From Flavobacteriales bacterium (GTDB lineage: Bacteria; Bacteroidota; Bacteroidia; Flavobacteriales_F; PHOS-HE28), in NCBI GenBank assembly GCA_016703005.1, contig JADJCX010000018.1, positions 3,794 through 67,793 on the forward strand: 64,000 bases of DNA. Reading direction: 5' to 3'. The first letter of the stretch is position 1. The number at the start of each line of letters is the position of its first letter. This document shows positions 1 to 18,273 of the stretch, piece after piece. A model generated the notes under the pieces. That model did not search any database, was not told the DNA's origin, and saw only the letters and a program-made list of their open reading frames with translations. The position numbers and the translations under genes are program-made.

Positions 1-19
1 GGGGAAGTAGAGAACGGCC

Positions 20-568
20 ATGCAAGCCGACCGCCGCACGCTGCTCTGGGTCTTCGCCATCAACGCGGGCTTCTTCATGGCGGAGTCCGTGGCTGGCTGG
101 CTGGCGCGCAGTATGGGCCTAGTAGCCGATGGACTGGACATGCTGGCCGATGCCTTCGTGTATGGCCTCGCGCTGGCGGCCATAGGCAAGGCCGTGGAAC
201 ACAAGCGACGGGTGGCGCACATCAGCGGCTACATCCAGCTGGGGTTGGCGATGCTGGGCTTTGCCGAAGTGTTGCGCCGCACTTTCCTGCATGAGGCGAT
301 GCCTGAACCATTGACGATGCTGGTGGTATCGCTCTGCGCGCTGTCGGGCAACCTTGTGTGCCTGTACCTGCTGCGCAAGGCAAAGGGTGGCGAAGCGCAC
401 ATGCAAGCCTCCTGGATCTTCACCAGCACCGATGCGAAAGTGAACGTGGGCGTGATGGTGGCAGCAGGGCTCGTTGCGCTTACCGGCACCCATTGGCCTG
501 ATCTTGTCGTAGGCACCGTGGTGTTCGCCTTGGTGTTGCGCGGGGCTGTGCGGATACTCAGGCTGTGA
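20..568 (+). CDS. CDF-like cation efflux transporter core (6-TM region only, no C-terminal cytoplasmic domain)
   Basis: 182-aa hydrophobic ORF. N-terminus MQADRRTLLWVFAINAGFFMAE resembles TM1 of CzcD/CDF proteins. The ORF stops right after the last predicted TM. It sits next to copper genes. Confidence 0.5.
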   Translation: MQADRRTLLWVFAINAGFFMAESVAGWLARSMGLVADGLDMLADAFVYGLALAAIGKAVEHKRRVAHISGYIQLGLAMLGFAEVLRRTFLHEAMPEPLTMLVVSLCALSGNLVCLYLLRKAKGGEAHMQASWIFTSTDAKVNVGVMVAAGLVALTGTHWPDLVVGTVVFALVLRGAVRILRL

Positions 569-748
569 GCACCGGACCAATGTCATCCGGGACAGCGAGG
601 ACCTTGCACGTGGATAGGACCCTCCGTAGGAATGCGGATACAATGTCCGATGAGAAGAACACAGGGTCTGGGTTGGGACGCCGCAAGCCACCACGATCGT
701 GATGGATTGCGGCGTCCACGTTTTGTGTTCAGCCGTTCAGCTCCGCCC

Positions 749-1384
749 TCACTTGGCCTTCACCGGTGTAAGCGCCATGCTGCATTTGCTGCACTTGTCG
801 CCTGCCTTGCCCGTCACTTCCGGGTGCATGGTGCAAGCGTGCGTCGCGGTCGCCGGTGCTTTCACCTCGGTCATGGCCATACCGCATTTGGTGCATTTGT
901 CACCTTTCTTGCCCGTCACGGTCGGGTGCATGGGGCAGGCATGAAGCGTTGCGTGCTGGGTCATCGCCATTCCACAATGCGCGCACTTGGCGTCCTTGGC
1001 GCCCATTGTCTCCGGGTGCATGGGGCAGCAGTACATGGCCTTGGTCATGGCCATGCCGCAATGCGGGCACTTGGCATCCTTGGCACCCATCGCCTCCGGG
1101 TGCATCGGACAACAGTGCATACCCATGCCCACAACGGCCGCATCCTTGGGCGCCACCAGGGCCATTTTGCATTTGCTGCACAGGTCGCCCTTTTTGCCCG
1201 TCACCTCCGGGTGCATGGGGCAACTGTACACCGGATCTTGTGGCATCGCAGTGGTAGCCGTGTGTGGATGGTCATGTTGCGCCAGAGCGCGCGATGTCCA
1301 TGGGTTCATGGTGATGAGCGCGAGCGTTAGCGAGGCACCCAGCATTGAGGTTGAAAAGGTCTTCATGGTTCGTTGGGGTTGCAT
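749..1384 (-). CDS. secreted heavy-metal-binding protein with 5 tandem CPMHPEV-TGK-GD-C-KCGM repeats (HMBD / YHYH-C-type metal-binding domain)
   Basis: 211-aa ORF with a signal-peptide-like N-terminus (alternative start MKTFSTSML near 1366). Five repeats of C-P-M-H-P-E-x-x-G-x-K-x-D-x-C-x-K-C-G-M-A are visible in the translation, matched by roughly 100 to 130-nt DNA repeats between 780 and 1260. Confidence 0.7.
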   Translation of the reverse strand: MQPQRTMKTFSTSMLGASLTLALITMNPWTSRALAQHDHPHTATTAMPQDPVYSCPMHPEVTGKKGDLCSKCKMALVAPKDAAVVGMGMHCCPMHPEAMGAKDAKCPHCGMAMTKAMYCCPMHPETMGAKDAKCAHCGMAMTQHATLHACPMHPTVTGKKGDKCTKCGMAMTEVKAPATATHACTMHPEVTGKAGDKCSKCSMALTPVKAK

Positions 1385-1446
1385 TGTTCGTGTAATACCT
1401 GCCCATGCGCTCCCATCAATGGACAGGAGCGCGAGGCATGGTCGGT

Positions 1447-1806
1447 TCAGTTGTGGGCCATTTCAGCAACGCCCATTTCGCGGCACGCTTTGGCGCAAGC
1501 CTCGCAGGCTTCAGCGCAACGTTTGCAATGCTCGTTGTTGTGCTTGCGGCACTCCTTGGCGCATTGGTCGCACACCTCGGCACAGAGGGCGCAGAGGCGG
1601 TGGGCGATGCTGTCGCCGATCTTGTCATCAGCGCGCGCCATGAAGGCGGCGGCCATGCGGCACAGGTCGGCGCAATAGCGGTCCAACTGGATGCAATCGG
1701 CCATCATCTTCACGTCGGCTTCGCTCAAGCAGGCGGTGGCGCAGTGTTCGCATTCGTTGGCACAGGTCTGGCAGGCCTGAATGCAGTCGTTGTGTTCCTT
1801 ATGCAT
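1447..1806 (-). CDS. Cys-rich four-helix-bundle copper storage-like protein (Csp3 / DUF326-like), cytosolic
   Basis: 119-aa ORF with about 18 Cys in repeated C-x2-C-x3-C-x2-C spacing (CIQACQTCANECEHCATAC ... CAEACEACAKAC). No signal peptide. Adjacent to metal genes. Confidence 0.65.
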   Translation of the reverse strand: MHKEHNDCIQACQTCANECEHCATACLSEADVKMMADCIQLDRYCADLCRMAAAFMARADDKIGDSIAHRLCALCAEVCDQCAKECRKHNNEHCKRCAEACEACAKACREMGVAEMAHN

Positions 1807-2533
1807 GGTGCACGGGTTGGTTGGTTTTCTTCTACCAAGGCAACGAGAACCAAGCCACCTTATTCGGGAAGTTCAGATAGCTACCGTCCCACTCACTTGC
1901 ACGTGACTGGACCCTGATCAGCGCACGTACTAACGGGGTAGATAGACCCCAAACCGGGATGTTGCGAGCCATGCCTTTGCCTTGCAAGGATCAACGGCTT
2001 TGGTCGCGTCGGCGCGCCAATGGATGGCCTTACGTTTGGCGCACCATGTCCCTTAACCGCGTTGAACGAGTGCGTCGCAGCTTTGCGATGGGACTTATTG
2101 CGTTGGTTGCGTGGAGCGCGTTGATGCCTGTGCTGTATCGCATGGATTGCCTGAGCAGCGGCCGGAGCGTTACGTCTTGGTTCACACCGGTCAACTGTCC
2201 TGGCACCGATGTCCCTGCCGGTGACCGCCCCTGTATCACGCCGAATTGCTGCGTGTTCATGAGCGCTTCGGTGGATCAACTGCTCTTCAATCCGGATAAA
2301 ACCGTGCCCGTTCCGTCGGTGCCGGAATTGGCGTGGACCCCTGCCGTTTGTGTTGTTCCGGCGCTCGGCCCGTTGCCCACCACTGGGCACTTCGTTGATC
2401 GAGGGCCGCCTAAGGCGCGATCGACCGACCTCGTTTTTATTGGAAGCCTGAGGATCTGAGATCCCCAGTAGAGTGCGCCCGATGCTTCCCGGCATCGGGC
2501 TGTGTCGTTTTCCAATAAACCCCGGTTGTTGTC

Positions 2534-3262
2534 ATGTCAAAGGATCCCGAATTCGGTTTGAACAATTTGCCCGGTACCGCTCGATGGGTGATGTCGCCAT
2601 GGGTGAGCTATATGAACAAGTTGCTCGCCAAGCTCCGTTCGCCCGTCGATATCAAGAAACGCTTCAACCACCGCGAGGATATGGTGAGCTTGGAGCAGAT
2701 CGGGAACTTCGAATTGCTCATTACCGATCTGATCGATCGCGATGTACAGGGCGACTTCGTGGAATTGGGTTGTTACAGCGGCAGCACCTCAGCGGTCTTC
2801 GGAAGTCTTCTGCATCGGCTGGCGCCTGAGCGCAGGTTCTTGGTGTACGATCGGTTCGATATGGAGTTGGGCAGTACCAGAAACATCCGTAGCCAGTTCG
2901 AGCAGCGCATGAAGGATTGCGGGCTGCCGATGCCGATCGTGCACGAGGGCGACCTCTTTGCGCTGCTGCCCGCACAGCTCCCCGCATCCATTGCGTTCGC
3001 GCACATCGATCTCGGGACCGGGGGCGGGGTATACCAGCATGCCGAGTTGCTTGTACATTCACTGAAGCACGTTTATCCGCGCCTGTCAAGCGGTGCAATA
3101 CTGATCCTTATGGACTACCATGTTCCCGATGTTACGATCCACGGCAACGATTCCAATCCTGCGGTACGCCTCGTGGCCGATACATTCTTCGAAGACAAGC
3201 CGGAGAAGATGCGCGTGCTCTATGGTGGTCCATGTTCCCATGCCTATATCCGAAAAAATTGA
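2534..3262 (+). CDS. class I SAM-dependent O-methyltransferase, macrocin-O-methyltransferase (TylF)-like
   Basis: 242-aa ORF. FVELGCYSGSTS glycine-rich SAM-binding motif. N-terminal region typical of the TylF family. Confidence 0.55.
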   Translation: MSKDPEFGLNNLPGTARWVMSPWVSYMNKLLAKLRSPVDIKKRFNHREDMVSLEQIGNFELLITDLIDRDVQGDFVELGCYSGSTSAVFGSLLHRLAPERRFLVYDRFDMELGSTRNIRSQFEQRMKDCGLPMPIVHEGDLFALLPAQLPASIAFAHIDLGTGGGVYQHAELLVHSLKHVYPRLSSGAILILMDYHVPDVTIHGNDSNPAVRLVADTFFEDKPEKMRVLYGGPCSHAYIRKN

Positions 3263-3268
3263 ACCATT

Positions 3269-4984
3269 ATGACCCGTGCCTCAGTTTGTACATCGCTCAT
3301 CATCGGGTGCATTTGGGCCCAAGCGCAGACGCCGCTCCCCATTCCCGATACGTTAACCGGTCCATTGATCCAACTGGCGCTGCAAGAAGGCACGCAGGAG
3401 TTCCATCCCGGCGAGGTGGTGGCCACGTACGGCTATAATGGCGATCTGCTCGGCCCCACCTTGATCCTCCAGCAGGGCGAACCCATCACTTTGAACGTCA
3501 CCAATACGCTGCCCGACCTGACCACCACGCATTGGCATGGCCTGCATGTGAGCCCCGCGAACGACGGTGGGCCGCATTCGGTGATCCTGCCCAACACAAC
3601 ATGGTCGCCATCGTTCACGGTGATGGATCGCGCTTCAACATTCTGGTACCACCCGCACGGCCATGGCCTTACCGACTACCAGGTGAGTTTAGGTGCCGCC
3701 GGTATGATCATCGTTCGCGATGCGCAGGAGGCGGCCCTCGACTTGCCCAGGACATACGGGGTCGATGACATACCGTTGATCCTTCAAACGAAGGCGATCG
3801 TTAGCGGCCAAGTCGCGTTGCACACCGGCTTGGACAGCGTAGTGCTGGCCAATGGTGTGCGCAATGCGTGGAAGGAATTGCCCGCCCAAGTGGTGCGCTT
3901 GCGCTGCTTGAACGGTTCCAGTGAGCGCACCTTCTTGTTGGGTTTCAGTAACGCACTTCAGTTCCATGTCATTGGCACGGATGGTGGGTTGCTGGCTGCA
4001 CCTGTCACCTTGAACCGCCTACAGTTGATGCCCGGGGAACGGGCTGAACTGCTTGTGGACCTTGGAGGGCAGCAAGGACAGTCGTTCCAGTTGATGAGTT
4101 ACGGGAGCGAGTTGCCCGACGACATCATTGGCGCCGCGCAGGTCGGCAACGGTATGGCAACGCTCGATGGATATGACCTGAACGCACTGAACGGTGCGGA
4201 CTTCGCACTGGTCACCTTCGCCGTTGGAGCGCCCACTGGTGATGGCACACTCGTTGTGCCCACAGCACTCGTGCCCACCAATGCATTCAACACGGCCGAT
4301 GTGGATGTAACGCGTCCGTTCAACATTGAACCGGAAAGCATGGGGGCCATGCAAATGATCGAAGGCCCTTTCGAGATCAATGGCGCGCTGATGGACATGG
4401 ATGTGATCAACGAAGTTGTGCAATTGGGCAGCACCGAGATCTGGGAGTTCATCAATAACACAATGGTGGGCCACCCGATCCACATCCACGACATCCAGTT
4501 CAATATCCTCGATCGCAACGGCTTGCCGCCGGAGCCTTGGGAAAGCGGGTGGAAGGATGTGGTCTTCGTGCCTGCCATGGGCAGCGCGCGTGTGATCACG
4601 CGCTTCGATGATTTCGCCGATCCGGATATGCCGTACATGTACCACTGCCATCTGCTCATGCACGAGGACGAGGGTATGATGGGGCAATTCCTCGTGATCG
4701 ATCCCAATGCCGTTGGCGAACTGATGACCGATCAGGTCGGCTTGACCGTTTGGCCGCAACCGTACGCCGATGGCCCGCTTCGACTGCAAGCCGAAGGGCT
4801 CGAGGGCCGGTGCACGGTTGCGCTGGCTGATGCCTTGGGTCGCACGGTGCTTTTGGAACAAACCGTTTTCAGTGATGGTCGCGGTTCCATCGTGTTGCCG
4901 GTGGTCGCCCCGGGGCACTATGTCCTGCGCATCACCGCCCGCGGCCACGTGCCGCTGGCAACCACGCTGATCGTCCAACCTTGA
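3269..4984 (+). CDS. multicopper oxidase (laccase/CueO-like) with T9SS C-terminal sorting domain
   Basis: 571-aa ORF. Signal peptide. Copper-ligand motifs HWHGLHV, HPHGH, HIHDIQF and HCHLLMHEDEGMM. The last roughly 80 aa (PLRLQAEG ... GHYVLRITARG ... LIVQP) look like a T9SS CTD. Confidence 0.85.
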   Translation: MTRASVCTSLIIGCIWAQAQTPLPIPDTLTGPLIQLALQEGTQEFHPGEVVATYGYNGDLLGPTLILQQGEPITLNVTNTLPDLTTTHWHGLHVSPANDGGPHSVILPNTTWSPSFTVMDRASTFWYHPHGHGLTDYQVSLGAAGMIIVRDAQEAALDLPRTYGVDDIPLILQTKAIVSGQVALHTGLDSVVLANGVRNAWKELPAQVVRLRCLNGSSERTFLLGFSNALQFHVIGTDGGLLAAPVTLNRLQLMPGERAELLVDLGGQQGQSFQLMSYGSELPDDIIGAAQVGNGMATLDGYDLNALNGADFALVTFAVGAPTGDGTLVVPTALVPTNAFNTADVDVTRPFNIEPESMGAMQMIEGPFEINGALMDMDVINEVVQLGSTEIWEFINNTMVGHPIHIHDIQFNILDRNGLPPEPWESGWKDVVFVPAMGSARVITRFDDFADPDMPYMYHCHLLMHEDEGMMGQFLVIDPNAVGELMTDQVGLTVWPQPYADGPLRLQAEGLEGRCTVALADALGRTVLLEQTVFSDGRGSIVLPVVAPGHYVLRITARGHVPLATTLIVQP

Positions 4985-5054
4985 ACCACGGACACAAGAT
5001 TTTCGATACTGCCTTTCACTTCACATCACAACTGGAAACCAAAACAACGTTCAC

Positions 5055-5795
5055 ATGAAAAAGCTCTTCTCCGTTATTCTCGCATCTGCGTGCCTTGCTT
5101 CGGCAACCGCGCAAACCACTGCACTGGATTTCACCGCCAACGATTGCGATGGCGTGAGCCATAACCTCTTTACCGAACTCGAGGCCGGTGATGTGGTGAT
5201 CATCGAACTGGTAATGATGGGCTGCCAACCCTGCGTTACCGCCGGCAATAGTCTCAAGAACAATGTGCTGCCCAACGTGAGTGACCCAAGCCGTGTGAAG
5301 CTGTACAGCATTGGCTTCACCAACGGTATCAATTGCACCCAGATGAACGACTGGAAGAACACCAACGGGTTCACGCACACCGTGTTCGCAGGCATGAGCG
5401 CACAAACAACGCACTACGGTGGTATGGGCATGCCGACCATCGCGGTGGTAGGTGGTGCGGCGCACGATGTGTTCTACAGCGAACAAGGTCATAGCGACAG
5501 TGATAACCCCGATATCCTCGCCGCCATAGAAGCAGCGCTCGTTGCGGGTGTTGGCATCAATGAGGTGAACTCAACGGATGTGGTCATTCACCCGAACCCT
5601 GTTGTCGATATCCTCAACTTCGATAAGGCCGATTGGACCAACGCCCGCATCCTCGACCTGCAAGGTCGTGAAGTGATGAATGTGCAACTCGTGGCAGGCA
5701 AGCTGGACGTGTCGCTGCTACAACCCGGCATGTTCGTGCTGCAATTGACCAATGCAACGGGTGCGCTGGGTACTACGCGCTTCGAGAAGAAGTGA
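5055..5795 (+). CDS. thioredoxin-fold (TlpA/ResA-like, CQPC motif) protein with T9SS C-terminal sorting domain
   Basis: 246-aa ORF. Signal peptide MKKLFSVILASACLASATAQ. A CxxC motif (MMGCQPCV) plus a downstream cis-Pro-like GMPTIAVVGG. C-terminus VVIHPNPVVDILNF ... GMFVLQLTNATG is CTD-like. Confidence 0.55.
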   Translation: MKKLFSVILASACLASATAQTTALDFTANDCDGVSHNLFTELEAGDVVIIELVMMGCQPCVTAGNSLKNNVLPNVSDPSRVKLYSIGFTNGINCTQMNDWKNTNGFTHTVFAGMSAQTTHYGGMGMPTIAVVGGAAHDVFYSEQGHSDSDNPDILAAIEAALVAGVGINEVNSTDVVIHPNPVVDILNFDKADWTNARILDLQGREVMNVQLVAGKLDVSLLQPGMFVLQLTNATGALGTTRFEKK

Positions 5796-5882
5796 TCAGG
5801 AGTGATGGTCGGAGCAGGCGGAGAGCCTGCTCCGATGTTGCACCTTCATGGAGACAGTAACACTGCTGAACCGCAACACAAC

Positions 5883-7319
5883 ATGAAGTTTTACGCCGTT
5901 GGTATGCTCGCACTGCTCGCCGCGGTGCAAGGCACTGCACAAACAACCGCCGTCTCATGGACAGCCCCGCTCGATTGCAATGCCGCTGGTGAGGGTGCGC
6001 TAAGGCCGCGCATTGCCATCAATGGCGATGGCAACCCCGTGGTGTTGTGGGGCGACTATTCACCCAACAGCAATCATGTTGCGGTGGGCAACGGTGCCGC
6101 TTTTCTTTCCCCGGTGGAGGTGAGTGCGCCCGGTTGCGTGCCTGCGGTGGCCGACTGGATGGGCAGCAGTATTGCTGCCGCGGGCAACACAGTGTGGGTG
6201 GTGATGAAAGGCACTCCCGAGGAAAGCAAACCCGTTTATGTGCGGCGCTCGGACGACGGTGGCTACACGTGGGGTGACACACTGCGGGTGGAGCCGTATG
6301 ACGGGCTTGTCTCGCGCTTCCCCTCTATTGCGCTCGATGACCCTGATGCCCCATTGGTGCAGTACATGCAGTTCGACAGCGGCTACTTCGGTGCCCGCCA
6401 AGTGGTATCACATATGATGGGAGGCGGCTTCATGTCTCCTGTGCAGGTGAGCACCCCGTTCGCACCCGGCGATGTATGCGATTGCTGTCCCAACCAAGTG
6501 GTGGTGCAAGGCAGCAACGTGGTCGCTCTGTACCGCAACGCCGGTCCGAATATCCGGGTCATGTGGGGCGCATCGTCCGGTGATGGCGGCGCCACATTCC
6601 CGGTTGGAACCGAGATCGATACTACAGGGTGGCCGCTGAACTCTTGCCCGAGCAGTGGCCCCGATGGCTACCTCGATGGCGACTCCTTGCGCTATGTGTG
6701 GATGAGCGGTGCGAACAACGGCACGAAGGTGTACGTCGGTAATGCTCTTGCGTCTGACCTATCGCTGGGTGCTCAGTGGAACGTGCACCCCGGCCAGATG
6801 CAGATGTTGCAACAGAACTTCCCAAGGATAGCAGGAAGCGGTGATACGCTTGGAATAGTATGGCAGCAGAGCATGGGTGGACAGCACGAGATACTCTTCA
6901 GTTGGAGCGTTACCGGTCCCATTGGGCTGAGCGCACCGGATACGGTGAACCTTGATGCCACGGGTGCCCAGAAGACGCCTGACATCGCATATGCTGACGG
7001 AGCCTTCCACATTGTTTGGAGCGAACTGGCTACGGGTCAGGTGCGCTACAGAAAGGCAACACTTACCAACGATGTTGGCGTGCAAGCATTCACTCCGGAG
7101 GCCATGCGCATTTTCCCGGATCCGGTCAGCGACCACTTGTTCATTGAAGGCATCATAGTAGGCTTGGCAGAGGTTGTCGACCTGCACGGTCGTGTGCATC
7201 TCTCGGTTGCTCTTAGTGCTTCGCAACTGGATGTTCGTGCGCTTGCGCCAGCGCCGTATCTGCTGCGTATTACCGATGCGAACGGCCAACAACGGACAGC
7301 GCGTTTCACGAAGAGGTGA
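5883..7319 (+). CDS. BNR/Asp-box repeat (sialidase-like beta-propeller) protein with T9SS C-terminal sorting domain
   Basis: Signal peptide MKFYAVGMLALLAAVQGTAQ at 5883 (the ORF opens at 5802). Asp-box motifs SDDGGYTW and SSGDGGATF. C-terminal PDPVSDHLFIEG ... PYLLRITDANG is CTD-like. Confidence 0.6.
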   Translation: MKFYAVGMLALLAAVQGTAQTTAVSWTAPLDCNAAGEGALRPRIAINGDGNPVVLWGDYSPNSNHVAVGNGAAFLSPVEVSAPGCVPAVADWMGSSIAAAGNTVWVVMKGTPEESKPVYVRRSDDGGYTWGDTLRVEPYDGLVSRFPSIALDDPDAPLVQYMQFDSGYFGARQVVSHMMGGGFMSPVQVSTPFAPGDVCDCCPNQVVVQGSNVVALYRNAGPNIRVMWGASSGDGGATFPVGTEIDTTGWPLNSCPSSGPDGYLDGDSLRYVWMSGANNGTKVYVGNALASDLSLGAQWNVHPGQMQMLQQNFPRIAGSGDTLGIVWQQSMGGQHEILFSWSVTGPIGLSAPDTVNLDATGAQKTPDIAYADGAFHIVWSELATGQVRYRKATLTNDVGVQAFTPEAMRIFPDPVSDHLFIEGIIVGLAEVVDLHGRVHLSVALSASQLDVRALAPAPYLLRITDANGQQRTARFTKR

Positions 7320-7328
7320 GTGCGGTGC

Positions 7329-7904
7329 ATGGGTCCCTTACTTACCATCCGCAACATGGTCTGCGACCGGTGCAAGTCGGCCGTGGCGCGTGTGTTCGAT
7401 GGGCAGCACTTGCCGGTGAAGCGCATCGAACTCGGAGAGGTGGAACTGCTCCGCGAACCTTTGACCGACGAGCTGGATGCCTTACGCGGCGCGTTGCGGG
7501 TGGAAGGCTTCGAACTGGTGGATGATCGCGACGCCGTGACCATCGCCCGCATCAAGGCGGCGATCGTGAAGCTGGTGCACCACGATGGCGATATGCAGGG
7601 CCGGGTGAAACTGGGCGATCATCTCAGTGCGTTACTGCACAAGGAATACTCTGGTCTCACAGCGCTCTTCACGCAGGTGGAAGGCATCACCATCGAGCAG
7701 TTCTTCCTCTTGCAGCGCCTTGAGCGCGTGAAGGAGCTGATCAAGTACGATGAGCTCACACTGAGCGAGATCGCGGACCGCACGGGCTTCAGCAGTGTTG
7801 CCCACTTGAGCGCACAGTTCAAGAAGCTCACCGGCATGACGCCGACCGCTTTCAAGCAACTAGGCTTGGCGCGTACCCCATTGGACAGGGTGGGCCCGAT
7901 GTAA
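7329..7904 (+). CDS. AraC-family transcriptional regulator with N-terminal HMA-like (MxCxxC) metal-binding domain, a candidate copper-responsive regulator
   Basis: N-terminus LLTIRNMVCDRCKSAVARVF is a canonical HMA motif. C-terminus ITIEQFFLLQRLERVKELI ... LSEIADRTGFSSVAHLSAQFKKLTGMTPTAFK is an AraC-type HTH. It lies immediately upstream of the copZ-like and copA genes. Confidence 0.7.
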   Translation: MGPLLTIRNMVCDRCKSAVARVFDGQHLPVKRIELGEVELLREPLTDELDALRGALRVEGFELVDDRDAVTIARIKAAIVKLVHHDGDMQGRVKLGDHLSALLHKEYSGLTALFTQVEGITIEQFFLLQRLERVKELIKYDELTLSEIADRTGFSSVAHLSAQFKKLTGMTPTAFKQLGLARTPLDRVGPM

Positions 7905-7976
7905 ACTCTTCCGGTCAGGATGTAACGCCTACGGTCCTTTGTCGCCGGTGCTTTGTACCGTCAAGAACGAACGACC

Positions 7977-8405
7977 ATGGACAACACGAACATCACCCTT
8001 CCGCTGCTCGACGTGAACAGCCCGCATTGCGCGCTGCGCGTTGAGAAAGCCATCCGCACGGTACCCGCTATCGCCGGCGCCGAAGTGGACCTGAACGCAC
8101 ATATGGCCCACCTGACCAGCACCGCACCGGCTACCGCAGTGCGCGAGGCGGTGGCCGCCATACGCAAAGCAGGCTACAACGTGGCCACCGAAGCGCACCG
8201 CTTCACCACCACCGGTGTCACCTGCGCCGGTTGCGCGAAAAGCGTGGGCACCATCCTGAACAAGCTGCCCGGCGTGATAAGTGCGCGCGTGGACCATGTG
8301 GAGAAGACGGCCGAGATCGAAGTGGTGAAGGGCACGTTATCGATCGATGATCTGCTGAACGCCCTCAAACCCGCTGGCTACGGCCTTATCGCACAAGCCG
8401 CATAA
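7977..8405 (+). CDS. tandem HMA-domain protein (CopZ-like copper chaperone with two domains)
   Basis: Domain 1 carries a degenerate motif, DVNSPHCALRVEKAI. Domain 2 is canonical, GVTCAGCAKSV. Each domain is about 65 aa. Confidence 0.7.
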   Translation: MDNTNITLPLLDVNSPHCALRVEKAIRTVPAIAGAEVDLNAHMAHLTSTAPATAVREAVAAIRKAGYNVATEAHRFTTTGVTCAGCAKSVGTILNKLPGVISARVDHVEKTAEIEVVKGTLSIDDLLNALKPAGYGLIAQAA

Positions 8406-8411
8406 ACACCA

Positions 8412-10848: not shown

Positions 10849-10874
10849 CCGAACGACCTATACCTCCAACGATC

Positions 10875-11768
10875 ATGAAAACCCTCCTCTCCCTCATCGC
10901 GCTACCAGCGCTGCTGTTCTTCAGCAGTTGCAGCGCGCAGATCAAGAACGCGCAGAGCACCATCGTGCGCATCACCGGTAATTGCGGCATGTGCGAGAAG
11001 ACCATCGAGAAGGTCGCCTACGTGAAGGGCGAAGCGGAAGCTGATTGGGATGTGGACGCCAAGACCGCGCGCATCACCTTCGACAGCACACGCACCAGCA
11101 TGGATGCCGTGCTGCAACGCATCGCCTACGCGGGTTATGACAGCGAACGCTACCTCGCTCCCGATGCCGCCTATGCCGCGCTGCCCGGTTGCTGCCAATA
11201 CGTGCGCACGTTCAAGAAGGCGCCGTTGACCACGACTCCGGTCGAACATGCCGGGCATGAAGGCATGGGCACGGACCATGCGCAACATGGCAGCACTTCC
11301 CCCGATACGCTTGCGGCGCAAGTACCGGCGAACCCAAAGTCCGATCAGTTCAATGGTCTCTTCACCGCCTATTTCGCTCTGAAGGACGCGCTCGTGGCTT
11401 CGGATGCGAAGAAGGCTGCGGCCCATGCTTCCGAATTGTCCGCTGCCGTGAAGGCCGTGAAGATGGAACGCATGGGACCCGAGCTACATGGTGTTTGGAT
11501 GCAAGTGATGGAGCCGCTCGCGAACATCAGCGCGGGCATCGCTTCGAAGACGGATATCGAGGCGCAGCGCAAGGCCTTCGCCGAACTTTCAGCACCCATC
11601 CTCGCGCTGGTGAAGGTCGCGCCGCGCCCGGAGCCGGTCTATTACGACCACTGCCCCATGTACGAGGGCGGCGCGGACTGGCTGAGCCAGGAGAAAGGCA
11701 TCAAGAACCCGTTCTATGGTTCGATGATGCTCACCTGTGGCAGCTTGAAGGAGACCATCACGAAGTAA
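10875..11768 (+). CDS. lipoprotein with N-terminal HMA-like domain and DUF3347-like C-terminal region ending in a CPM metal motif
   Basis: Signal and lipobox MKTLLSLIALPALLFFSSC. HMA-like ITGNCGMCEKTIEK. C-terminus YYDHCPMYEGGADWLSQ ... MLTCGS. Copper context. Confidence 0.55.
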   Translation: MKTLLSLIALPALLFFSSCSAQIKNAQSTIVRITGNCGMCEKTIEKVAYVKGEAEADWDVDAKTARITFDSTRTSMDAVLQRIAYAGYDSERYLAPDAAYAALPGCCQYVRTFKKAPLTTTPVEHAGHEGMGTDHAQHGSTSPDTLAAQVPANPKSDQFNGLFTAYFALKDALVASDAKKAAAHASELSAAVKAVKMERMGPELHGVWMQVMEPLANISAGIASKTDIEAQRKAFAELSAPILALVKVAPRPEPVYYDHCPMYEGGADWLSQEKGIKNPFYGSMMLTCGSLKETITK

Positions 11769-11786
11769 TGCCCGCGATCACGCCCC

Positions 11787-14089
11787 ATGGACCTGCTTCG
11801 CTTCCTCCGCATCGCGATCCAGTTGATCGCCCTGTTGATCTTCCTGCTGAGCGGAGACTTGGCCACTGCGCAGGACGGATATGGTACACGCGCATTGGGC
11901 ACCTCGGTGCCGAGCGGCGACTTCACTCCGCGCACTAACCGCTATGACCTCACCATCCGGGATACCATCGTCAACTACACGGGCAAGGCGCGCAAGGCCT
12001 TCACGGTGAACGGGCAGATGCCCATGCCCACCCTCACCTTCACCGAAGGCGATACGGCAGAGATCGTGGTGCACAACGCCATGGAAAAGGAGGAGACCTC
12101 CTTGCACTGGCACGGCATCATCCTGCCGTATCAGCTGGACGGCGTACCCTACCTGACCACGGCCCCTATAAAGGCCGGTGAAACACAGGTGTACAAGTTC
12201 CCCCTTTTGCAGAGCGGCACCTACTGGTACCACTCGCACACCAAGTTGCAAGAGCAGAACGGCATGCACGGCGCGCTCATCATCCACAAGCGGAATGTGG
12301 AGCCCATGCCCGAGCAAGTGCTTATCCTGAGCGAGTGGACGGACATGAAGCCCTTCGAGGTGCACCGCCGCCTGCACAGCGCGAACGATTGGAGCGCCAT
12401 CAAAAGCACCGGATCCGGCCGGGCACCGTGCAGAGCTACAGCGATGCCATCAAGGACGGTGCGCTCGGCGTGAAGCTCACCAACGAGTGGAAGCGCATGA
12501 ACGCCATGGACGTGAGCGATGTCTACTACGACCTCCTTTTCGCCAACGGCAAACCCGTGGACGAAGCGCCGCGGTTCAAGGCCGGTGAGCGTGTGCGCGT
12601 GCGGCTGATCAACGGCGGGGCGAGCAGCTACTTCTGGATCACTTATGCCGGTGGGAAGATGACCGTGGTGGCCAGCGACGGCATCGATGTGGAACCGGTG
12701 GAGGTCGACCGCTTCATCATGGGCATCGCCGAGACCTACGACATCATCGTGACCATACCGGCGGACAGCACGGCCTATGAACTGGTGGCCACCAGCGAGG
12801 ATCGGGTACGCTCCACCTCCCTGTGGCTCGGCAGCGGCATCCGGCAGCTCGCCGCACCGCTCCAGCCGCTGAAGTACTTCGCCGGTATGGAGATGATGAA
12901 CGACATGATGAAGATGAACGGCGACCTCGATGACATGGGCATGAACATGAGCCTCCAGCAGATGGACATGAACGTGGTGATGTACCCGAGATCACCGGCG
13001 CGAAAGCGACACCCGTTGAAGGTGCAGGACATTCCCATGGTGGTGACGAATACAACAGCAATGCGCTGTCCAACATCGTCACGCTCAACTACGCCATGTT
13101 GCGTTCACCCACCAGCACCGCGCTGCCGCCCGGGCCCGTAAAGGAGATGCGCTTCGAGCTCACCGGCAACATGAACCGCTACCTCTGGGCCATCGACAAC
13201 AAGACCGTTTCGGAGACGGACCGCATCCTGATCCGCAAGGGCGAGAACGTGCGCATCATCCTCTACAACAACAGCATGATGCGGCACCCGATGCACCTGC
13301 ACGGCCACTTCTTCCGGGTGGTGAACGGTCAGGGAGACCACTCGCCGCTGAAGAACGTGCTCGACATCATGCCCATGGAGACGGACACCATCGAGTTCGC
13401 CGCCACCGAAACGGGCGACTGGTTCTTCCACTGCCACATCCTCTACCACATGATGAGCGGCATGGGCCGTGTGTTCACTTACGAAGGGACCGGCGCCGAA
13501 CCCGCAACTGCCCGATGTGAAGAAAGCCGCGCGCCTGTTCTCCCGCGACGACAAGGAATGGCACTTCATGGTACAGAACGACTTCGCCACGAACGGCAAC
13601 GACGGCGAGGCCATGTACATGAACAAGCGCTGGAACCTGCAGAGCGAATGGCGCTTGGGCTACATGGAGGAACACGGCCAGGAAGTGGAGACCCACTTCG
13701 GTCGCTACTTCGGCAAGATGCAATGGCTGTTCGTGAACGTGGGCCTGGACTGGCGCACACGCGAAGGACACGGCGGCAACGATCCGGAGGATAACCTCTT
13801 CGGGCAGACCAATACCAAGAACAGCCGGAGCGTGGGGCATATCGGATTCCAGTACACCCTGCCGATGCTCCTGGTCCTTGACGTGCGCATCGACACCGAT
13901 GGCCAACTGCGGTCACAACTGATGCGTGAGGACATCCCGCTAACGCCCCGGATGCGGATGGACCTGATGTACAACACCGATCTGGAGTACATGGCCGGCC
14001 TGCGCTATGTGCTGGACAAGACGTGGGCGATAAGGGCGCACTACGATAGTGACATGGGCTTGGGCGTGGGCATGACGATGAGCTACTGA
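11787..14089 (+). CDS. multicopper oxidase (CopA/PcoA-like) fused to a CopB-like C-terminal region; reading frame broken 3 times (about 12425, 12988, 13503)
   Basis: Four consecutive overlapping ORFs are collinear with a single roughly 765-aa protein. Cupredoxin motifs HWHGIILP, WYHSHT, HPMHLHGH, HCHILYHMMSGM. The final roughly 200 aa (EWHFMVQNDFATNG ... GLDWRTREG ... YDSDMGLGVGM) resemble the outer-membrane CopB family. The breaks sit at CCGGAG read as CCGAG, at a C run, and in a GC-rich run. Confidence 0.75.
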
Positions 14090-14134
14090 GGTCTGTCCGT
14101 TTGAGGGTGCATTCCATTGCGCGATCTTGGCGGC

Positions 14135-15346
14135 ATGAAACACATCTTGCTCTTCATGGTGATCATGGCGGTCGGGTCAACATCCGCCCAGAACCCGGTC
14201 ATACAGATCGTCCTTGACGCAGTGAGCACCGACAGTTTGGTCAGCTATGTCAGTCAACTCAGCGGCGAAACGACCGTGGATGTGGGCAACGGACCCGAGA
14301 TGATCGTAAGCCGCCACAAGTTGAACGCTGGTAATGCTGTTGCCCAAGCATGGCTGCAGCAGAAGCTCACCGAATTCGGTTATGCGCCGACAACGCAATC
14401 GTTCAGCGCAACCGGGTTCAATGTGCTTGCCGAAAAAACCGGTGCGCTCCATCCCGATAGCAGGGTGATCATTTGCGGCCACTACGATGCCATGCCCGGC
14501 GGCATAGCCGCTGCACCGGCTGCCGATGACGATGGCAGCGGAACGTGTAGTGTGCTTGAAGCTGCACGGATCCTTGCACCGTACACCTTCGAACACACCA
14601 TCGTATTCGCTCTATGGGATGAGGAGGAACAAGGGAAGATCGGCAGCCTCTTCTACGCTGGGGTTTCCGCCGCCAACGACGATACGATCCATGCCGTGGT
14701 GAATATGGATGCCATTGCTTATGATGGCAACGGCGACGGACTTGCACGCATCCACACGCGACCGGTCGCGAACAGCCTTGCCATCAAGGACACGGCGCTT
14801 GCGGTCAATACTGATTACGGCCTCAACATCAACTTGGCCATCAATAACCCGGGCGCCACGTATAGCGATCACGCCAGTTTCTGGACCGAAGGTTACGGCG
14901 CCATCCTTGTCATCGAGGATTTCGATAACGACGGCAACCCGCACTATCACACACCGACCGACCTGCTGCAGTACCTCACCCAAAGCATGTGGAGCGACCT
15001 CACCAAGTTGAGCATCGGTACGGTGGCCACCCTTGCCATACCGTACAACAACAACTTGGCCTTAGTTGAAAGAGCTGCACCTACCGCCCAGCTCTTCGCT
15101 TTTCCTGTGCCGTCGGAAGGAGATGCGCGTGTTTGGGTGGAGAGCCGCACCGCAGGAAGGGCGAGGTTGGAATTGGTTGACGCTATGGGTCGCACCATGT
15201 ACCTATTGCACGAAGGCCCGCTCGCACAGGGCAAGCAGGCCTTCGACGTACCGTTGGGCGATCTGGCGCCCGGGAGCTATCGCGCCGTTCTCACCTCTTC
15301 GGACGGAACCAAGAGTTCCGTTGCACTGGTGCGCACGGCGCAGTGA
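14135..15346 (+). CDS. M28-family zinc aminopeptidase with T9SS C-terminal sorting domain
   Basis: Signal peptide MKHILLFMVIMAVGSTSAQ. HYDAMPGG ... DDDGSGTCSVLEAARIL and DHASF motifs. C-terminal roughly 90 aa is CTD-like (LFAFPVPSEG ... GSYRAVL). Confidence 0.7.
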   Translation: MKHILLFMVIMAVGSTSAQNPVIQIVLDAVSTDSLVSYVSQLSGETTVDVGNGPEMIVSRHKLNAGNAVAQAWLQQKLTEFGYAPTTQSFSATGFNVLAEKTGALHPDSRVIICGHYDAMPGGIAAAPAADDDGSGTCSVLEAARILAPYTFEHTIVFALWDEEEQGKIGSLFYAGVSAANDDTIHAVVNMDAIAYDGNGDGLARIHTRPVANSLAIKDTALAVNTDYGLNINLAINNPGATYSDHASFWTEGYGAILVIEDFDNDGNPHYHTPTDLLQYLTQSMWSDLTKLSIGTVATLAIPYNNNLALVERAAPTAQLFAFPVPSEGDARVWVESRTAGRARLELVDAMGRTMYLLHEGPLAQGKQAFDVPLGDLAPGSYRAVLTSSDGTKSSVALVRTAQ

Positions 15347-15985
15347 TCACAGTTTCACGAACGGCTTGATGACAGCGCGACGACCGCGGTCCATCACCAA
15401 GTAGTACTGTCCCGAAGGCAGGCCAACGAGGTTCACGGTGTTCACCCGATTGTCCTGAACCGCCTGGGTGCGGAGCAGTCGGCCGTCGGCGCCTAGGATG
15501 TCGACGGATACCACGCCGGTGCAACCCTTCAGCGAAAGCATCACTTTCTCGTCCGCGGGCACCGGGTACAATGAAATGGCCTTGCTACCTGCCACGGGTG
15601 CAACACTGTTCGGGTCCAAAACGGTGATCGTACCGAATTGGGTGGTGGAGTGGAAGGCCCCATTGAACTCGCCGGTGCAGTGGTAATCCCAAACGCCTGC
15701 GGCATTGAAGGTGTGCGAGAAGGTCCAAGGTGAATTCACGGTGATGCCGCTATTGCTGAACCCATCCGGATTGTCAGGGAACATGTCCAACTGGGCATAC
15801 ACGTTATGCGAACCACTGATACAGTTCCACTGCACGATGTCGCCGATGTTGATCGTAATGAACTGTTGATCGTAGTAGGGGAGGTTGTTGGGGTCGAGCA
15901 ATGACCCGCCAACTTCAACCTGGTGGGTGACTTGCGCGGCAACCGCCAACGGTGCCAAAGCGAAAAGCGTAACGAGTTTCATCAT
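15347..15985 (-). CDS. cupredoxin-like (possible type-1 blue copper) protein with T9SS C-terminal sorting domain
   Basis: Signal peptide MMKLVTLFALAPLAVAAQ. Candidate copper ligands GSHNV, YHC, AFH. C-terminus ISLYPVPADEKV ... GQYYLVMD is CTD-like. Confidence 0.45.
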   Translation of the reverse strand: MMKLVTLFALAPLAVAAQVTHQVEVGGSLLDPNNLPYYDQQFITINIGDIVQWNCISGSHNVYAQLDMFPDNPDGFSNSGITVNSPWTFSHTFNAAGVWDYHCTGEFNGAFHSTTQFGTITVLDPNSVAPVAGSKAISLYPVPADEKVMLSLKGCTGVVSVDILGADGRLLRTQAVQDNRVNTVNLVGLPSGQYYLVMDRGRRAVIKPFVKL

Positions 15986-16086
15986 GGAATGATCGGTTAT
16001 CTGGTTGTTCGCAAAGGAAGGGGCTGCTGGTCCCCGTTGGTGGCAAAGAAATCGGTCGGGCTGGGAAAGCCTCAGCGTCGTATTGG

Positions 16087-18273
16087 TCACTTCTTCATAC
16101 CCAGGCCCGCATCAATATGGTCCAGCACCTTGGTCATTAGGTGCAGGCGGTCCTTACCGCGCACGTTGTGGGCATGTCCGGGATACTCGAAGTAGTCCAC
16201 CTGGACACCCTTATCCACGCAGTTTTTCACGAAGGTCAGGCTGTGCTCGCGGAGCACCGTATCGTCCATGGTTCCATGTATCAAGAGCAAGTCGCCCTTG
16301 AGCTGATCGGCTTTGTCCGTGAGCATGCTCGTCGCGTAACCCTCCGGATTTTCCGCTGGTGTGTCCATGTACCGCTCGGTATACATCACTTCGTACATCC
16401 CCCAATCCATTACCGGGCCGCCAGCGACCCCCACTTTGAACAGGCCGGGCTTCTTCAGCATCAAGCTTGTTGTCATGAAACCACCATAGCTCCAGCCGTG
16501 TATCGCCATGCGTTCGCCGTCCACGTATGGAAGCGTCTTTAAGTACTCGGCACCCGCGACTTGGTCATCGACTTCCACAGCCCCTAAGCGGCGATGGACC
16601 ATCTGTTCGAACGCCAGACCGCGATGTTCGCTGCCATGTCCATCCACAGTGAACACCAGATATCCTCGGTTGGCGGCATGCAGCATCCAGGGCGAAGCTC
16701 CACCGAGGAACGAGTTGCTGACCAGTTGCACGTGCGGTCCATTGTATACGTAAACGATCACAGGGTATTTCTTCGCTGGGTCGAAGCCGCTTGGCTTGAT
16801 CAACCGAGCGTTCAAGCGATCGCCGTTGGCGCCGGGTATGGTGAACAGTTCCGTTGCCCCGATGGAAAATCCAGCGTAGGGGTTCCTGCTGTCCAACAGG
16901 ATCTTCAAAACCTGCCCGCTGCGCGCATCTACAAGTTGGGTCCTGCTCGAAACGCTGGTGCTGCTCCACTGGTCGATCACGCGGCCGTCGTCCACTTGGC
17001 ACAAATGGGTGCCGGCTTCCTGGGTGATGCGTTCGGTTTTTCCGGTCGACAGTTCTACCTTAAAGAGATGCAGTTCGCAGCTACCCATGTCGCCTAGCGC
17101 GGTGCCGGGTCCATCTTCGGCAGTGCCTTGGATGTACACGTATTCCTCTTTCTCATCGGTGCCGAGAAGGTCCGTCACCGCCCAAGCACCCTTGGTCAAC
17201 TGGCGCAAGAGGCCGTTCTTGAGGTCATACAGGTAGAGGTGCTGCCAGCCATCGCGCACGCTCCACCAGATGTATTGCCCTCCTTTCTTTTCGAGGATGT
17301 GCGCGGGATGCAGCGGCTCCAGCCACTTGTCGTTTTTCTCCTCCAGAAGTGTCTTCACCGGCGCACCGGTTTTCACATCGTACTGCACCAGACGAAGGTG
17401 ATCGGTAGCCCTGTTCAGGTGTGTGATATACACGAATTGCCCACTGTGGTCCCAAGCGATGTTGGTGAGGTACTGATCCCGGGGCTCGCCGGTTACCAAG
17501 AAGGTGGTCTTGCGTGTGCGCACATCGAACACCCCGAGTGTTACGTGATGGCTCGTTTGTCCGGCCATCGGATAGCGCAGTTTGTTGAACGTGCTCGGCT
17601 TGGTGCTGATGTCTTCCACGTAGTATGGCGTCACCATGCTTTCGTCCATGCGATAGAATGCGAGCAGATCCCCGCTCGGACTCCAGAACGTCCCTTTCGT
17701 AATGCCGTATTCCTGGCGGTGAACACTTTGCCCATTCACGACCCCGTCCACCGTGTCGGCTGTAACAGCAATGTTCTCTTTCTGTCCCGGCTGTGCGATG
17801 TAGAGGTTCTGGCCGACGGTATAGGCAACTTGGTGTTGCTTCTCATCGGTGTCCTGGTTCGCGGCTTCCGGCAGCATGCGCAAGCGCTCGCTGAGCTTGC
17901 TGCTTTTGCGATCCCACACGAACACGCGATCGTTGTGCATGAAGCTGAATTGCGTGCTGCCTTCCCAGACCACACCCGGGAACCGCTTCAATTGCGCATC
18001 CTCCGCCAGACCTGCATTCAGGTCGGCCAGTTTCACCATGGGTGCATCAGCGCTCTTGCCGATGGTGCCCGACCAAAGGGTATCGCCCTTGATGTGGCAA
18101 TAGGTGCCGGTGCCGGGTATCCATTGCAGACCACGTAGTCGTTGCGGTGCCAGATCGGTGCCGGCCTTCAATATTGCATCGGACAAGGTGAGCGGCTTGA
18201 GCCTCTCCTGTGCACGGAGTTGGCAAGAGGATGCAATGAGCAATACGGCAAGGAAAACACGCGAACGGAGCAT
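16087..18273 (-). CDS. dipeptidyl-peptidase IV (S9B family)
   Basis: 728 aa. Signal peptide. N-terminal beta-propeller region. Catalytic GWSYGG motif with downstream Asp and His (HGTMDD ... GHAH). Confidence 0.85.
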   Translation of the reverse strand: MLRSRVFLAVLLIASSCQLRAQERLKPLTLSDAILKAGTDLAPQRLRGLQWIPGTGTYCHIKGDTLWSGTIGKSADAPMVKLADLNAGLAEDAQLKRFPGVVWEGSTQFSFMHNDRVFVWDRKSSKLSERLRMLPEAANQDTDEKQHQVAYTVGQNLYIAQPGQKENIAVTADTVDGVVNGQSVHRQEYGITKGTFWSPSGDLLAFYRMDESMVTPYYVEDISTKPSTFNKLRYPMAGQTSHHVTLGVFDVRTRKTTFLVTGEPRDQYLTNIAWDHSGQFVYITHLNRATDHLRLVQYDVKTGAPVKTLLEEKNDKWLEPLHPAHILEKKGGQYIWWSVRDGWQHLYLYDLKNGLLRQLTKGAWAVTDLLGTDEKEEYVYIQGTAEDGPGTALGDMGSCELHLFKVELSTGKTERITQEAGTHLCQVDDGRVIDQWSSTSVSSRTQLVDARSGQVLKILLDSRNPYAGFSIGATELFTIPGANGDRLNARLIKPSGFDPAKKYPVIVYVYNGPHVQLVSNSFLGGASPWMLHAANRGYLVFTVDGHGSEHRGLAFEQMVHRRLGAVEVDDQVAGAEYLKTLPYVDGERMAIHGWSYGGFMTTSLMLKKPGLFKVGVAGGPVMDWGMYEVMYTERYMDTPAENPEGYATSMLTDKADQLKGDLLLIHGTMDDTVLREHSLTFVKNCVDKGVQVDYFEYPGHAHNVRGKDRLHLMTKVLDHIDAGLGMKK

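Follow-up and report, generated by a model that had tools for sequence, protein, structure and literature searches.

The models of copper homeostasis in Gram-negative bacteria, namely the cue, cus and pco/cop systems, stop at the periplasm and the outer membrane. Is copper also handled farther out, on or beyond the cell surface, in bacteria that export proteins through their type IX secretion system (T9SS)? The question is raised by a stretch of 64,000 nucleotides from a Flavobacteriales bacterium (assembly GCA_016703005.1, contig JADJCX010000018.1, positions 3,794 to 67,793), which is referred to here as the window. Within its first 16 kb, genes for copper proteins are interleaved with five genes whose products end in a T9SS C-terminal sorting domain (CTD). 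We propose, with a probability of roughly one half, that the window from position 1 to about 14.1 kb is a copper-resistance island of the flexible genome, and that three of the tagged proteins, the multicopper oxidase (MCO) MCO1, a thioredoxin-like (Trx-like) protein and a BNR-type propeller (together the trio), are exported by the T9SS and handle copper at or beyond the outer membrane.

Sorting domains of the five tagged proteins

The five tagged genes of the locus are the following.

3269..4984, + strand: MCO1, multicopper oxidase of the CueO-like three-domain type; Sec signal peptide, T9SS type A CTD at about residues 495-571
5055..5795, + strand: Trx-like protein (ResA/TlpA/DsbE-like fold, CxxC) with a signal peptide and a T9SS CTD
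5883..7319, + strand: BNR/sialidase-like beta-propeller with a signal peptide and a T9SS CTD
14135..15346, + strand: M28 aminopeptidase with a T9SS CTD (Peptidase_M28, 105.6 bits)
15347..15985, - strand: cupredoxin with a T9SS CTD (PF00127 18.7 bits, cut-off 21.2; PF18962 24.5 bits)

A first-pass annotation, made from the letters and translations alone, had assigned a CTD to all five proteins and had named the TIGR04183 model as a check. On single sequences, and against curated cut-offs of 23 for TIGR04183 and 27 for the Pfam model PF18962, this check came out mixed: the Trx-like protein passes TIGR04183 with 25.5 bits, but the cupredoxin (21.1), the BNR protein (17.9) and MCO1 (14.5) fall below it and the whole M28 peptidase gives no match. 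The Pfam scores of the five proteins are 26.8, 24.5, 22.7, 14.7 and 13.3 bits, with 13.3 bits for the M28 tail alone.

The assignment itself is confirmed by profile comparisons. A hidden Markov model (HMM) was built independently from the tails of 20 Trx-family homologues of other genomes, all of which match PF18962, and was run against all 535 six-frame open reading frames (ORFs) of the window. Its top six matches are the five named proteins and a protein at 59334-60290, each matched at its extreme C-terminus; the next match has an E value of 1.5. With hhalign, the C-terminal 95 amino acids of each family (window protein plus orthologues) were compared with a seed alignment of Pfam-validated CTDs. 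The CTD probability is 95.2% for M28 (E 2.5e-8), 97.4% for MCO1 (E 1.5e-11), 97.0% for the BNR protein and 97.9% for the cupredoxin, with E values from 2.5e-8 to 4.7e-13 across the tagged families, whereas the control C-termini of DPP4 and the methyltransferase reach 0.1-0.2%. PF18962 is also matched directly by five of six BNR homologues, by all orthologues of the cupredoxin and nearly all of Trx, and by about half of those of MCO1; the stop codon comes no more than a few residues after each CTD match. As read from the translations, each of the five begins with a hydrophobic Sec signal peptide ending in A-Q or similar. Judged by sequence, all five named proteins are thus confirmed to bear a T9SS type A CTD.

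Such genes are dense at this locus: five lie in 16 kb, where the remainder of the window or 1.16 Mb of related loci would predict 0.3-0.9 (Poisson P at most 0.0025). Outside the locus, the protein at 59334-60290 has a strong CTD (35.4 bits); at 56453-60290 a large protein with a strong T9SS CTD at its end is apparently split over three frames. A PorE-like protein at 27739-29583 combines TPR, PD40, CarboxypepD_reg and OmpA domains, the architecture described for the T9SS component PorE.

Copper genes and the recurrence of the trio

The copper genes that the first-pass annotation had listed (CDF-like, HMBD, Csp3-like, two MCOs, AraC, CopZ-like, CopA and HMA lipoprotein) were all recovered by domain or motif searches. 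Apart from MCO1, they and the other untagged genes of the island are as follows.

20..568, + strand: CDF-like (cation diffusion facilitator-like) membrane transporter of 182 amino acids (aa), transmembrane part only, six transmembrane segments (PF01545 60.2 bits, cut-off 26.6)
749..1384, - strand: secreted protein with five HMBD repeats (PF19335 100.1 bits; predicted N-terminal signal peptide)
1447..1806, - strand: Csp3-like protein, of the cytosolic four-helix-bundle copper storage type (DUF326 50.7 bits, cut-off 20.4)
1971..2459, + strand: small Cys-containing membrane protein, conserved upstream of the MCO1 block
2534..3262, + strand: TylF-like S-adenosylmethionine methyltransferase, 6 bp upstream of MCO1 (PF05711 27.3 bits, cut-off 23)
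7329..7904, + strand: AraC-family regulator and putative copper sensor, its N-terminal domain HMA-like with MxCxxC (HTH_18 61 bits)
7977..8405, + strand: tandem-HMA CopZ-like metallochaperone (PF00403 77.6 bits in two stretches)
8418..10848, + strand: CopA, Cu(I)-exporting P1B-type ATPase (E1-E2_ATPase, HMA and Hydrolase domains)
10875..11768, + strand: HMA and DUF3347 lipoprotein (DUF3347 77.7 bits, HMA 20.6 bits; lipobox FFSSC)
11787..14089, + strand: MCO2, PcoA/CopA-type Met-rich multicopper oxidase with a beta-barrel-like C-terminal domain (Cu-oxidase_3, Cu-oxidase and Cu-oxidase_2 across three frames)

A scan by MCO1 alignment, with one genome per species, gave 80 loci at 37-53% identity (comparison loci are labelled L and a number). 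The oxidase carries a CTD in 62 of the 80, and this CTD-bearing set spans Flavobacteriales, Chitinophagales, Saprospiraceae, Cytophagales-type metagenome-assembled genomes (MAGs), Rhodothermales and Ignavibacteria-like genomes. Scored by its core domain with the CTD left off, the Trx-like protein is encoded in 17 of the 80 loci, in several Bacteroidota orders, and always adjoins MCO1; it stands beside 17 of the 62 CTD-bearing oxidases and beside none of the 18 without a CTD. The pair is adjacent in all seven Trx-carrying loci reached via Trx or cupredoxin homologues as well. Since the Trx gene usually lies directly upstream of MCO1, and directly downstream of it in the clade of the window, the adjacency of the two genes has outlived a change in gene order.

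Most often the pair is accompanied by the HMA-like AraC regulator (in 11 of the 17 loci, of which six have no CopA in the flank), and DUF3347 proteins, CopA and PcoA-type MCOs are frequent there too. The BNR gene directly follows Trx in L090, L095, L096 and L097, all of the window's clade; it shares the locus with the pair in three more distant genomes, and adjoins MCO1 only in L024. Nearly the whole order of the window is kept in L024, L029 and L037, and a near-identical one in L087 (small protein, MCO1, Trx, AraC, HMA, CopA, HMA, DUF3347, MCO2), L095 (small protein, MCO1, Trx, BNR, second Trx, AraC, HMA-MauE, DUF3347, ATPase, MCO2), L096 (small protein, TylF, MCO1, T9SS protein, Trx, BNR, MbnP, T9SS protein, AraC, HMA-MauE, HMA, DUF3347) and L097 (TylF, BNR, AraC, MCO1, Trx, BNR, HMA2, CopA, DUF3347, MCO2). 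In L088 and L089 CopA is missing, and MCO1 and Trx are accompanied by another T9SS protein. In Stygiobacter electus 09-Me (L014) and Flavobacteriaceae bacterium S0862 (L046), an MCO1 with a CTD is encoded inside a cop island.

With at least 8 kb of sequence on both sides of MCO1, 31 loci can be regarded as fully flanked. A copper gene is present in 13 of them (42%), and it is found in seven of the nine that carry Trx compared with six of the 22 that do not (Fisher p = 0.017). These gene neighbourhoods support the view that MCO1, Trx and BNR recur together beside copper genes in many Bacteroidota.

Two further features of the related islands are recorded here. In L096 the gene for the copper-binding protein MbnP (12212-13027) lies inside the T9SS block, and an HMA-MauE fusion is encoded in L090-L092, L095 and L096.

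As for the regulator, its description as an HMA-AraC fusion stands in part. The MxCxxC loop, as I[KR]NMVC[DNS]RC, is found in 12 of 14 aligned sequences (the others being one NMCCSRC variant and one N-terminally truncated protein), but the N-terminus scores just 12.4 bits against the Pfam HMA model. At 39% identity, the CopZ-like protein duplicates the two N-terminal HMA domains of CopA, encoded next to it, and in both proteins the first HMA domain lacks CxxC. CopA shows the motifs CPC, DKTGT and GDGIND at 453, 497 and 694 together with an N-terminal HMA domain, and its 98%-identical intact orthologue in L003 scores 600.5 bits with TIGR01511 (cut-off 397), as expected of a P1B-type ATPase.

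MCO2 has 12 Met inside one 40-aa stretch, and its intact L003 orthologue (768 aa) reaches 399.7 bits with TIGR01480, below the cut-off of 479. The C-terminal domain of about 200 aa (window 13469-14089) is beta-barrel-like, ends in Tyr and weakly matches OMP_b-brl; the Pfam family of CopB gave no match to it at E values up to 10. The two parts form a single stop-to-stop ORF of 744-851 aa (called as 761-772 aa) in L003, L011, L014, L024, L029, L044, L087, L095 and L097, and MCO2 may be a fusion of the PcoA-PcoB type.

In the HMBD protein, five repeats of the form [YH]xC[PT]MHP...CxxCxMA are found by regular expression, with 17 Cys and 23 Met overall. The Csp3-like protein has DUF326 in three stretches, contains 19 Cys over its 119 aa and lacks a signal peptide, which are the features expected of Csp3; with the Csp1 model TIGR04401 it scores 29.5 (cut-off 100). 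The CDF-like protein reaches 75.9 bits with TIGR01297, just under the cut-off of 82.35. The small protein at 1971-2459 gave no match in Pfam and NCBIfam searches, and in L087, L090, L095 and L096 a homologue immediately precedes MCO1 or TylF-MCO1. Orthologues of the TylF-like methyltransferase occur in L096 (E 1.5e-102), where the gene adjoins MCO1, and in L097 (E 4.4e-72), where it lies about 2 kb from MCO1 with a BNR paralogue and AraC between them.

The co-directional array at 2534-14089 has no terminator-like hairpin inside and one just upstream, at 2477-2500. A search of the intergenic regions for a shared operator returned only a 20-nt element at 603 and 1896, and none upstream of the T9SS genes. 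Because this element is species-specific and does not precede the T9SS genes, it gives no computational sign of co-regulation. The element itself, CTTGCACGTG-N(3-4)-GGACCCT, is 20-21 nt long and occurs twice in the island (603-623 and 1896-1915), once after the CDF gene and once in the divergent intergenic region between the Csp3 and small-protein genes; it is found in all assemblies of the species, is absent from 1.5 Mb of other loci and may be an operator.

In the window both CopA and MCO2 are broken, and the breaks are best regarded as assembly indel errors. By alignment to L003, a 95%-identical assembly in which CopA (809 aa) and MCO2 (768 aa) are intact, CopA has one frameshift, caused by one extra C at about 10017 in a CCCC run, and MCO2 has at least three (AAAA at 12404, CCC or AAA runs at 12988-13006, and indels at 13485-13491). 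Reading the two genes as pseudogenes was rejected, since the indels lie at homopolymer runs, the L003 copies are intact and rpoC is split as well (51647-52891 and 52813-55965, the latter containing the NADFDGD motif). The assembly is error-prone in the style of long reads, and apparent pseudogenes anywhere in the window should be distrusted.

The window has a G+C content of 57-65% and includes a tuf-rpoB-rpoC region. MAGs labelled 'Flavobacteriales bacterium' from activated sludge and wastewater encode a protein with 100% identity to MCO1, and assemblies L001-L003, of the same or a very close species, show 93-99% nucleotide identity to the window with many small gaps. A gene for a tyrosine recombinase of the XerC/D-like integrase family lies at 41213-42178, about 27 kb from the island. 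Defence genes stand beside the island in L001 (1-6740, MmeI-type restriction-modification and DUF3800) and in L095 (1-6213, CBASS-like).

Possible roles of the trio and competing explanations

MCO1 contains the Cu-oxidase_3 and Cu-oxidase_2 domains and four copper motifs, HWHG (88-91), WYHPH (126-130), HPIHIH (402-407) and HCHLLMHEDEGM (459-470). All four are invariant in 16 homologues, as expected of a three-domain MCO. Its N-terminus, MTRASVCTSLIIGCIWAQAQ, lacks a twin-arginine (Tat) motif. Its closest solved structure is the lignin-active Ochrobactrum CueO 6evg (277 bits), followed by the E. coli CueO at about 235 bits; source annotations call homologues bilirubin oxidase.

For the Trx-like protein, the AlphaFold (AF2) model (predicted local distance difference test, pLDDT, 80) matches 3kcm, ResA, DsbE, Etrx2 and TlpA in Foldseek with a probability of 1.0 and target-normalised TM-scores of 0.70-0.79, the TlpA structures 4txo, 4txv and 1jfu being among the matches. 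Together with the conserved C57xxC60 and M126-P127, these matches fit a thioredoxin fold with the CxxC at the N-terminus of helix 1 and a cis-Pro loop. A Sco-like structure, 3me7, ranks lower (TM 0.59), and the protein has a CxxC in place of the CxxxC of the Sco/SenC chaperones. A profile search of the PDB with 21 homologues recovered the solved CTD 8glk_D (3e-9), PG_2175 (2m72, 4e-5) and DsbE (3gl3). The protein itself had no thioredoxin-type Pfam match (AhpC-TSA, Redoxin or Thioredoxin_8) at E values up to 0.01; AhpC-TSA is weakly matched by seven of the 21 homologues.

All 21 Trx homologues carry PF18962. When members are sampled with the core domain alone, 38 of 43 do so and one has the type B CHU_C signal. 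The core domain defines a family of 491 clusters at 50% identity (353 at E values of 1e-10 or below), whose members are nearly all 250-265 aa long, with the domain starting at residue 20-27, and carry no annotation beyond 'T9SS type A sorting domain-containing protein' or 'hypothetical'.

Conserved positions of the Trx-like protein are M54-x-x-C57-x-x-C60, Y121, M126-P127 (in the cis-Pro loop), C31 and C94, the last two probably forming a structural disulfide; His137 is largely conserved among the 21 homologues and falls below 90% in the wider family. This pattern suggests that the likeliest role of the Trx-fold protein is to bind or deliver Cu(I), with a Cys2Met2-type site, as the partner of MCO1. 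A Cu(I) role is favoured because a CxxC framed by Met looks less like a WCxxC redox site than like a metal site, and because no electron donor would be at hand for a reductase beyond the outer membrane; that the protein keeps thiols in the right redox state is less likely.

The BNR protein shows Asp-box-like motifs in its sequence (SDDGGYTW and SGDGGATF). Three of six homologues match BNR_2 (best 1.1e-9), the window protein does not, and its PDB profile matches to sialidases are weak (E 0.2-0.7). Two Cys motifs, V-C-x-C-C-P and C-P, are invariant and comprise C199, C201, C202 and C255.

On our reading of the island as a copper system with an exported arm, the AraC regulator would sense cytoplasmic Cu(I) and switch on the co-directional array at 2534-14089. 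The cytoplasmic layer of the island would comprise this regulator, the tandem-HMA CopZ-like chaperone, CopA and Csp3-like storage, with the CDF-like protein in the inner membrane. CopZ and CopA would move Cu(I) to the periplasm, and MCO2, the protein with five HMBD repeats and the HMA-DUF3347 lipoprotein would handle the exported Cu(I) there and at the outer membrane. The trio would leave the cytoplasm by Sec, fold and acquire metal in the periplasm, and then pass through the T9SS to the cell surface or the medium. Outside, MCO1 may turn over Cu(I) or copper-reducing phenolics, and the Trx-fold protein would act as its dedicated partner at the surface. We infer this order of events and the surface location, and for the Trx and BNR proteins the suggested roles are drawn from the ResA/TlpA-like fold, the M-x-x-C-x-x-C, M-P and His residues, and the VCxCC motif.

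Several observations weigh against this reading. MCO1 scores 372.6 bits with the CueO equivalog NF008205 (cut-off 525); it has no Met-rich stretch, and its residues 286-360 do not align with CueO. By alignment, it has T398 and V400 at the positions of D439 and M441, the substrate-copper ligands of CueO. Because of the low score, the missing insert and the replaced residues, the sequence lends no support to a dedicated cuprous oxidase role for MCO1. The four conserved Cys of the BNR protein could simply form two disulfides, and we know of no electron donor for a thiol reductase outside the outer membrane. As regards gene context, 16 of the 31 fully flanked MCO1 loci have no recognisable copper gene, the MCO1-Trx pair stands without one within 10 kb in L031, L039 and L088/L089, and in relatives the island lies in a variable region near defence genes, where unrelated accessory genes accumulate.

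Many of these points bear on a serious rival, the main one to copper handling, in which MCO1 is a secreted laccase-like enzyme. The trio, perhaps together with TylF, would then be an extracellular, copper-requiring oxidase module of laccase, bilirubin-oxidase-like or Mn-oxidase-like type, acting on organic or metal substrates. Its link to copper would consist of cofactor supply and co-regulation, with four coppers loaded in the periplasm before T9SS export and with the Trx-fold protein as a maturation factor, as TlpA and Sco are for CuA sites. TlpA reduces ScoI and CoxB for copper insertion, and the fold of the Trx-like protein resembles TlpA (4txo, 4txv). The absence from MCO1 of the CueO insert and of the two substrate-copper ligands, the lignin-active best solved relative and the bilirubin oxidase annotations all speak for such a module, as do the pairs in L031, L039 and L088/L089 that lack copper-resistance genes. 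In addition, three lineages have a methyltransferase gene upstream of MCO1, in two of them immediately next to it, and this gene hints at a small-molecule substrate. However, the recurrent partners are of the resistance type (P1B-1 CopA with HMA, PcoA-type MCO, Csp3 and HMBD) rather than substrate-pathway genes, the most frequent neighbour is the HMA-like AraC regulator, and no candidate substrate pathway is conserved. We regard the oxidase module as possible rather than probable.

Coincidental accretion is a weaker explanation. The locus would be a hot spot for accessory genes in a lineage where T9SS cargo is common, and the tagged genes would be unconnected with copper. The region is indeed variable among close relatives and adjoins restriction-modification and CBASS-like defence genes, CTD genes occur in the background at about one per 18 kb, and other, unrelated T9SS proteins are present in the islands of relatives (226 aa in L088; 295 aa and 750 aa in L096). 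Nevertheless, MCO1, Trx and the HMA-like AraC regulator have stayed adjacent across orders and changes of gene order. Copper genes accompany 42% of the fully flanked MCO1 loci against about 1% by chance, a figure that is an estimate rather than a computed value and assumes one or two copper loci per genome of about 4 Mb. A distant BNR homologue, a lipoprotein without a CTD, also sits within a cop island (L046). We therefore regard accretion as improbable.

The first-pass annotation had gone further and joined all five tagged genes into one copper system. Of that proposal the part concerning MCO1, Trx and BNR, which recur with copper genes, is supported by synteny, but not the part concerning the M28 peptidase and the cupredoxin, for which the flanking genes are also needed.

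16087..18273, - strand: DPP-IV family S9 peptidase, DPP4 (DPPIV_N and Peptidase_S9 domains)
18340..19350, - strand: MurB, backbone flank

Orthologues of the cupredoxin were used as anchors for L090-L094. In L090 (80% identical) MurB, DPP4 and the cupredoxin are followed on the other strand by M28, HMA-MauE, BNR, Trx and MCO1. In L091/L092 (77% identical) the order is MurB, DPP4, cupredoxin and M28, then HMA-MauE, a TylF paralogue, a cupin and unrelated genes; MCO1, Trx, BNR, AraC, CopA and MCO2 are all absent from this locus. The tagged M28 and cupredoxin genes are thus conserved in place in relatives that lack MCO1, CopA and AraC there, an arrangement that the annotation itself had named as a sign of coincidental adjacency. 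In L093/L094 (62% identical) the cupredoxin stands alone beside BshC in an unrelated context. The backbone appears to begin at M28, because M28 is 80% identical between the window and L091 and everything to its left differs; the TylF protein of L091 was rejected as a backbone marker, being a paralogue with 33% identity to that of the window. Homologues of M28 and the cupredoxin are absent from the 80 MCO1-anchored loci and from L087, L088, L095, L096 and L097, five islands that are complete or partial.

By these comparisons the island lies to the left of a conserved backbone of M28, cupredoxin, DPP4 and MurB, and the M28 peptidase and the cupredoxin, predicted T9SS cargo by their CTDs, neighbour it by position only. 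The cupredoxin nevertheless has the sequence of a genuine copper protein: all 13 homologues keep H60, C103, H112 and Q116, which would form a type-1 copper site, and PF00127 flags some of the orthologues. A single secreted copper-detoxification arm of all five proteins, suggested by the shared CTD, by this copper site, by M28 lying 45 bp after MCO2 with no terminator-like hairpin (read-through is possible) and adjoining HMA-MauE in relatives, is very improbable, given the loci just described and a cupredoxin gene that lies on the opposite strand, downstream of DPP4.

If the trio is copper-regulated and located at the surface, metal defence would gain a new arm, in a phylum dominant in wastewater, soil and marine particles. 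Defence against copper, or oxidation that depends on it, would reach past the outer membrane, two uncharacterised families would acquire functions and copper would join the list of T9SS functions. More tentatively, we suggest a widespread extracellular module in Bacteroidota and relatives, composed of a T9SS CueO-like oxidase and a T9SS Trx-fold Cu(I)-binding partner, often with a Cys-rich propeller, under HMA-AraC control. If, on the other hand, the trio is a secreted laccase with its maturation factor, it would bear on the oxidation of lignin and pollutants and on the loading of cuproenzymes before T9SS export.

Comparison with known systems

With the cue system of E. coli (CueR, CopA and CueO) the island shares a P1B-ATPase with HMA domains and a three-domain, CueO-like MCO, for which CueO gives the best match in both NCBIfam and the PDB, but its regulator is of the AraC type with an HMA-like MxCxxC rather than a MerR-type CueR. 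MCO1 also differs from CueO in having a Sec instead of a Tat signal and in its T9SS CTD, along with the lower equivalog score and the missing Met-rich insert and D439/M441 noted above. With the pco/cop systems (PcoA/CopA and PcoB/CopB) it shares the Met-rich, CopA-type MCO2, in which the A and B functions appear to be joined in one chain. Such a fusion is not part of the classical system, and PcoC, PcoD, PcoE and PcoRS are missing from the island. The Csp3-like protein agrees with Csp3 as a small, Cys-lined four-helix-bundle protein with 19 Cys and without a signal peptide; it scores under the cut-off of the exported Csp1 model, and its copper binding is a prediction.

The TlpA-ScoI pair of Bradyrhizobium and the Scs suppressor-of-copper-sensitivity proteins are envelope thioredoxin-fold proteins linked to copper. 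The Trx-like protein resembles them in its extracytoplasmic ResA/TlpA-like fold, its CxxC and cis-Pro loop and its genetic tie to copper. In contrast to them, it shows only 13-21% identity, has no membrane anchor and no DsbD/CcdA-type electron donor nearby, and lacks the Trp before the CxxC, with a conserved Met at -3 and another before the cis-Pro instead. It differs from these proteins also in always carrying a T9SS CTD, and from Sco in its CxxC in place of CxxxC plus His.

Among T9SS cargo proteins with a thioredoxin domain, the closest precedent is HBP35 of Porphyromonas gingivalis (Shoji et al. 2010, PMC2907840, as cited in PMC10202324). In that summary, HBP35 likewise has a thioredoxin-like domain followed by a type A CTD and is exported by the T9SS, but it serves haem use, with no link to an oxidase or to copper. 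When the PDB was searched by profile with the Trx-like family, only the CTD part of the HBP35 structure 5y1a was matched, and weakly (E 0.12).

Full-text literature searches found no paper that joins the T9SS and copper. The sole paper with both 'type IX secretion' and 'multicopper oxidase' treats them separately, none of those with both 'T9SS' and 'copper resistance' appears by title and abstract to address such a link, and neither copper nor oxidases come up in a 2023 review of T9SS effectors. What sets this locus apart from the systems compared here is a conserved T9SS-exported module with two uncharacterised families, which is not described in the literature searched. Otherwise the island is, by its gene content, an ordinary mosaic of cue-like and pco/cop-like parts with a Csp3-type protein, placed under a regulator that is not of the MerR type.

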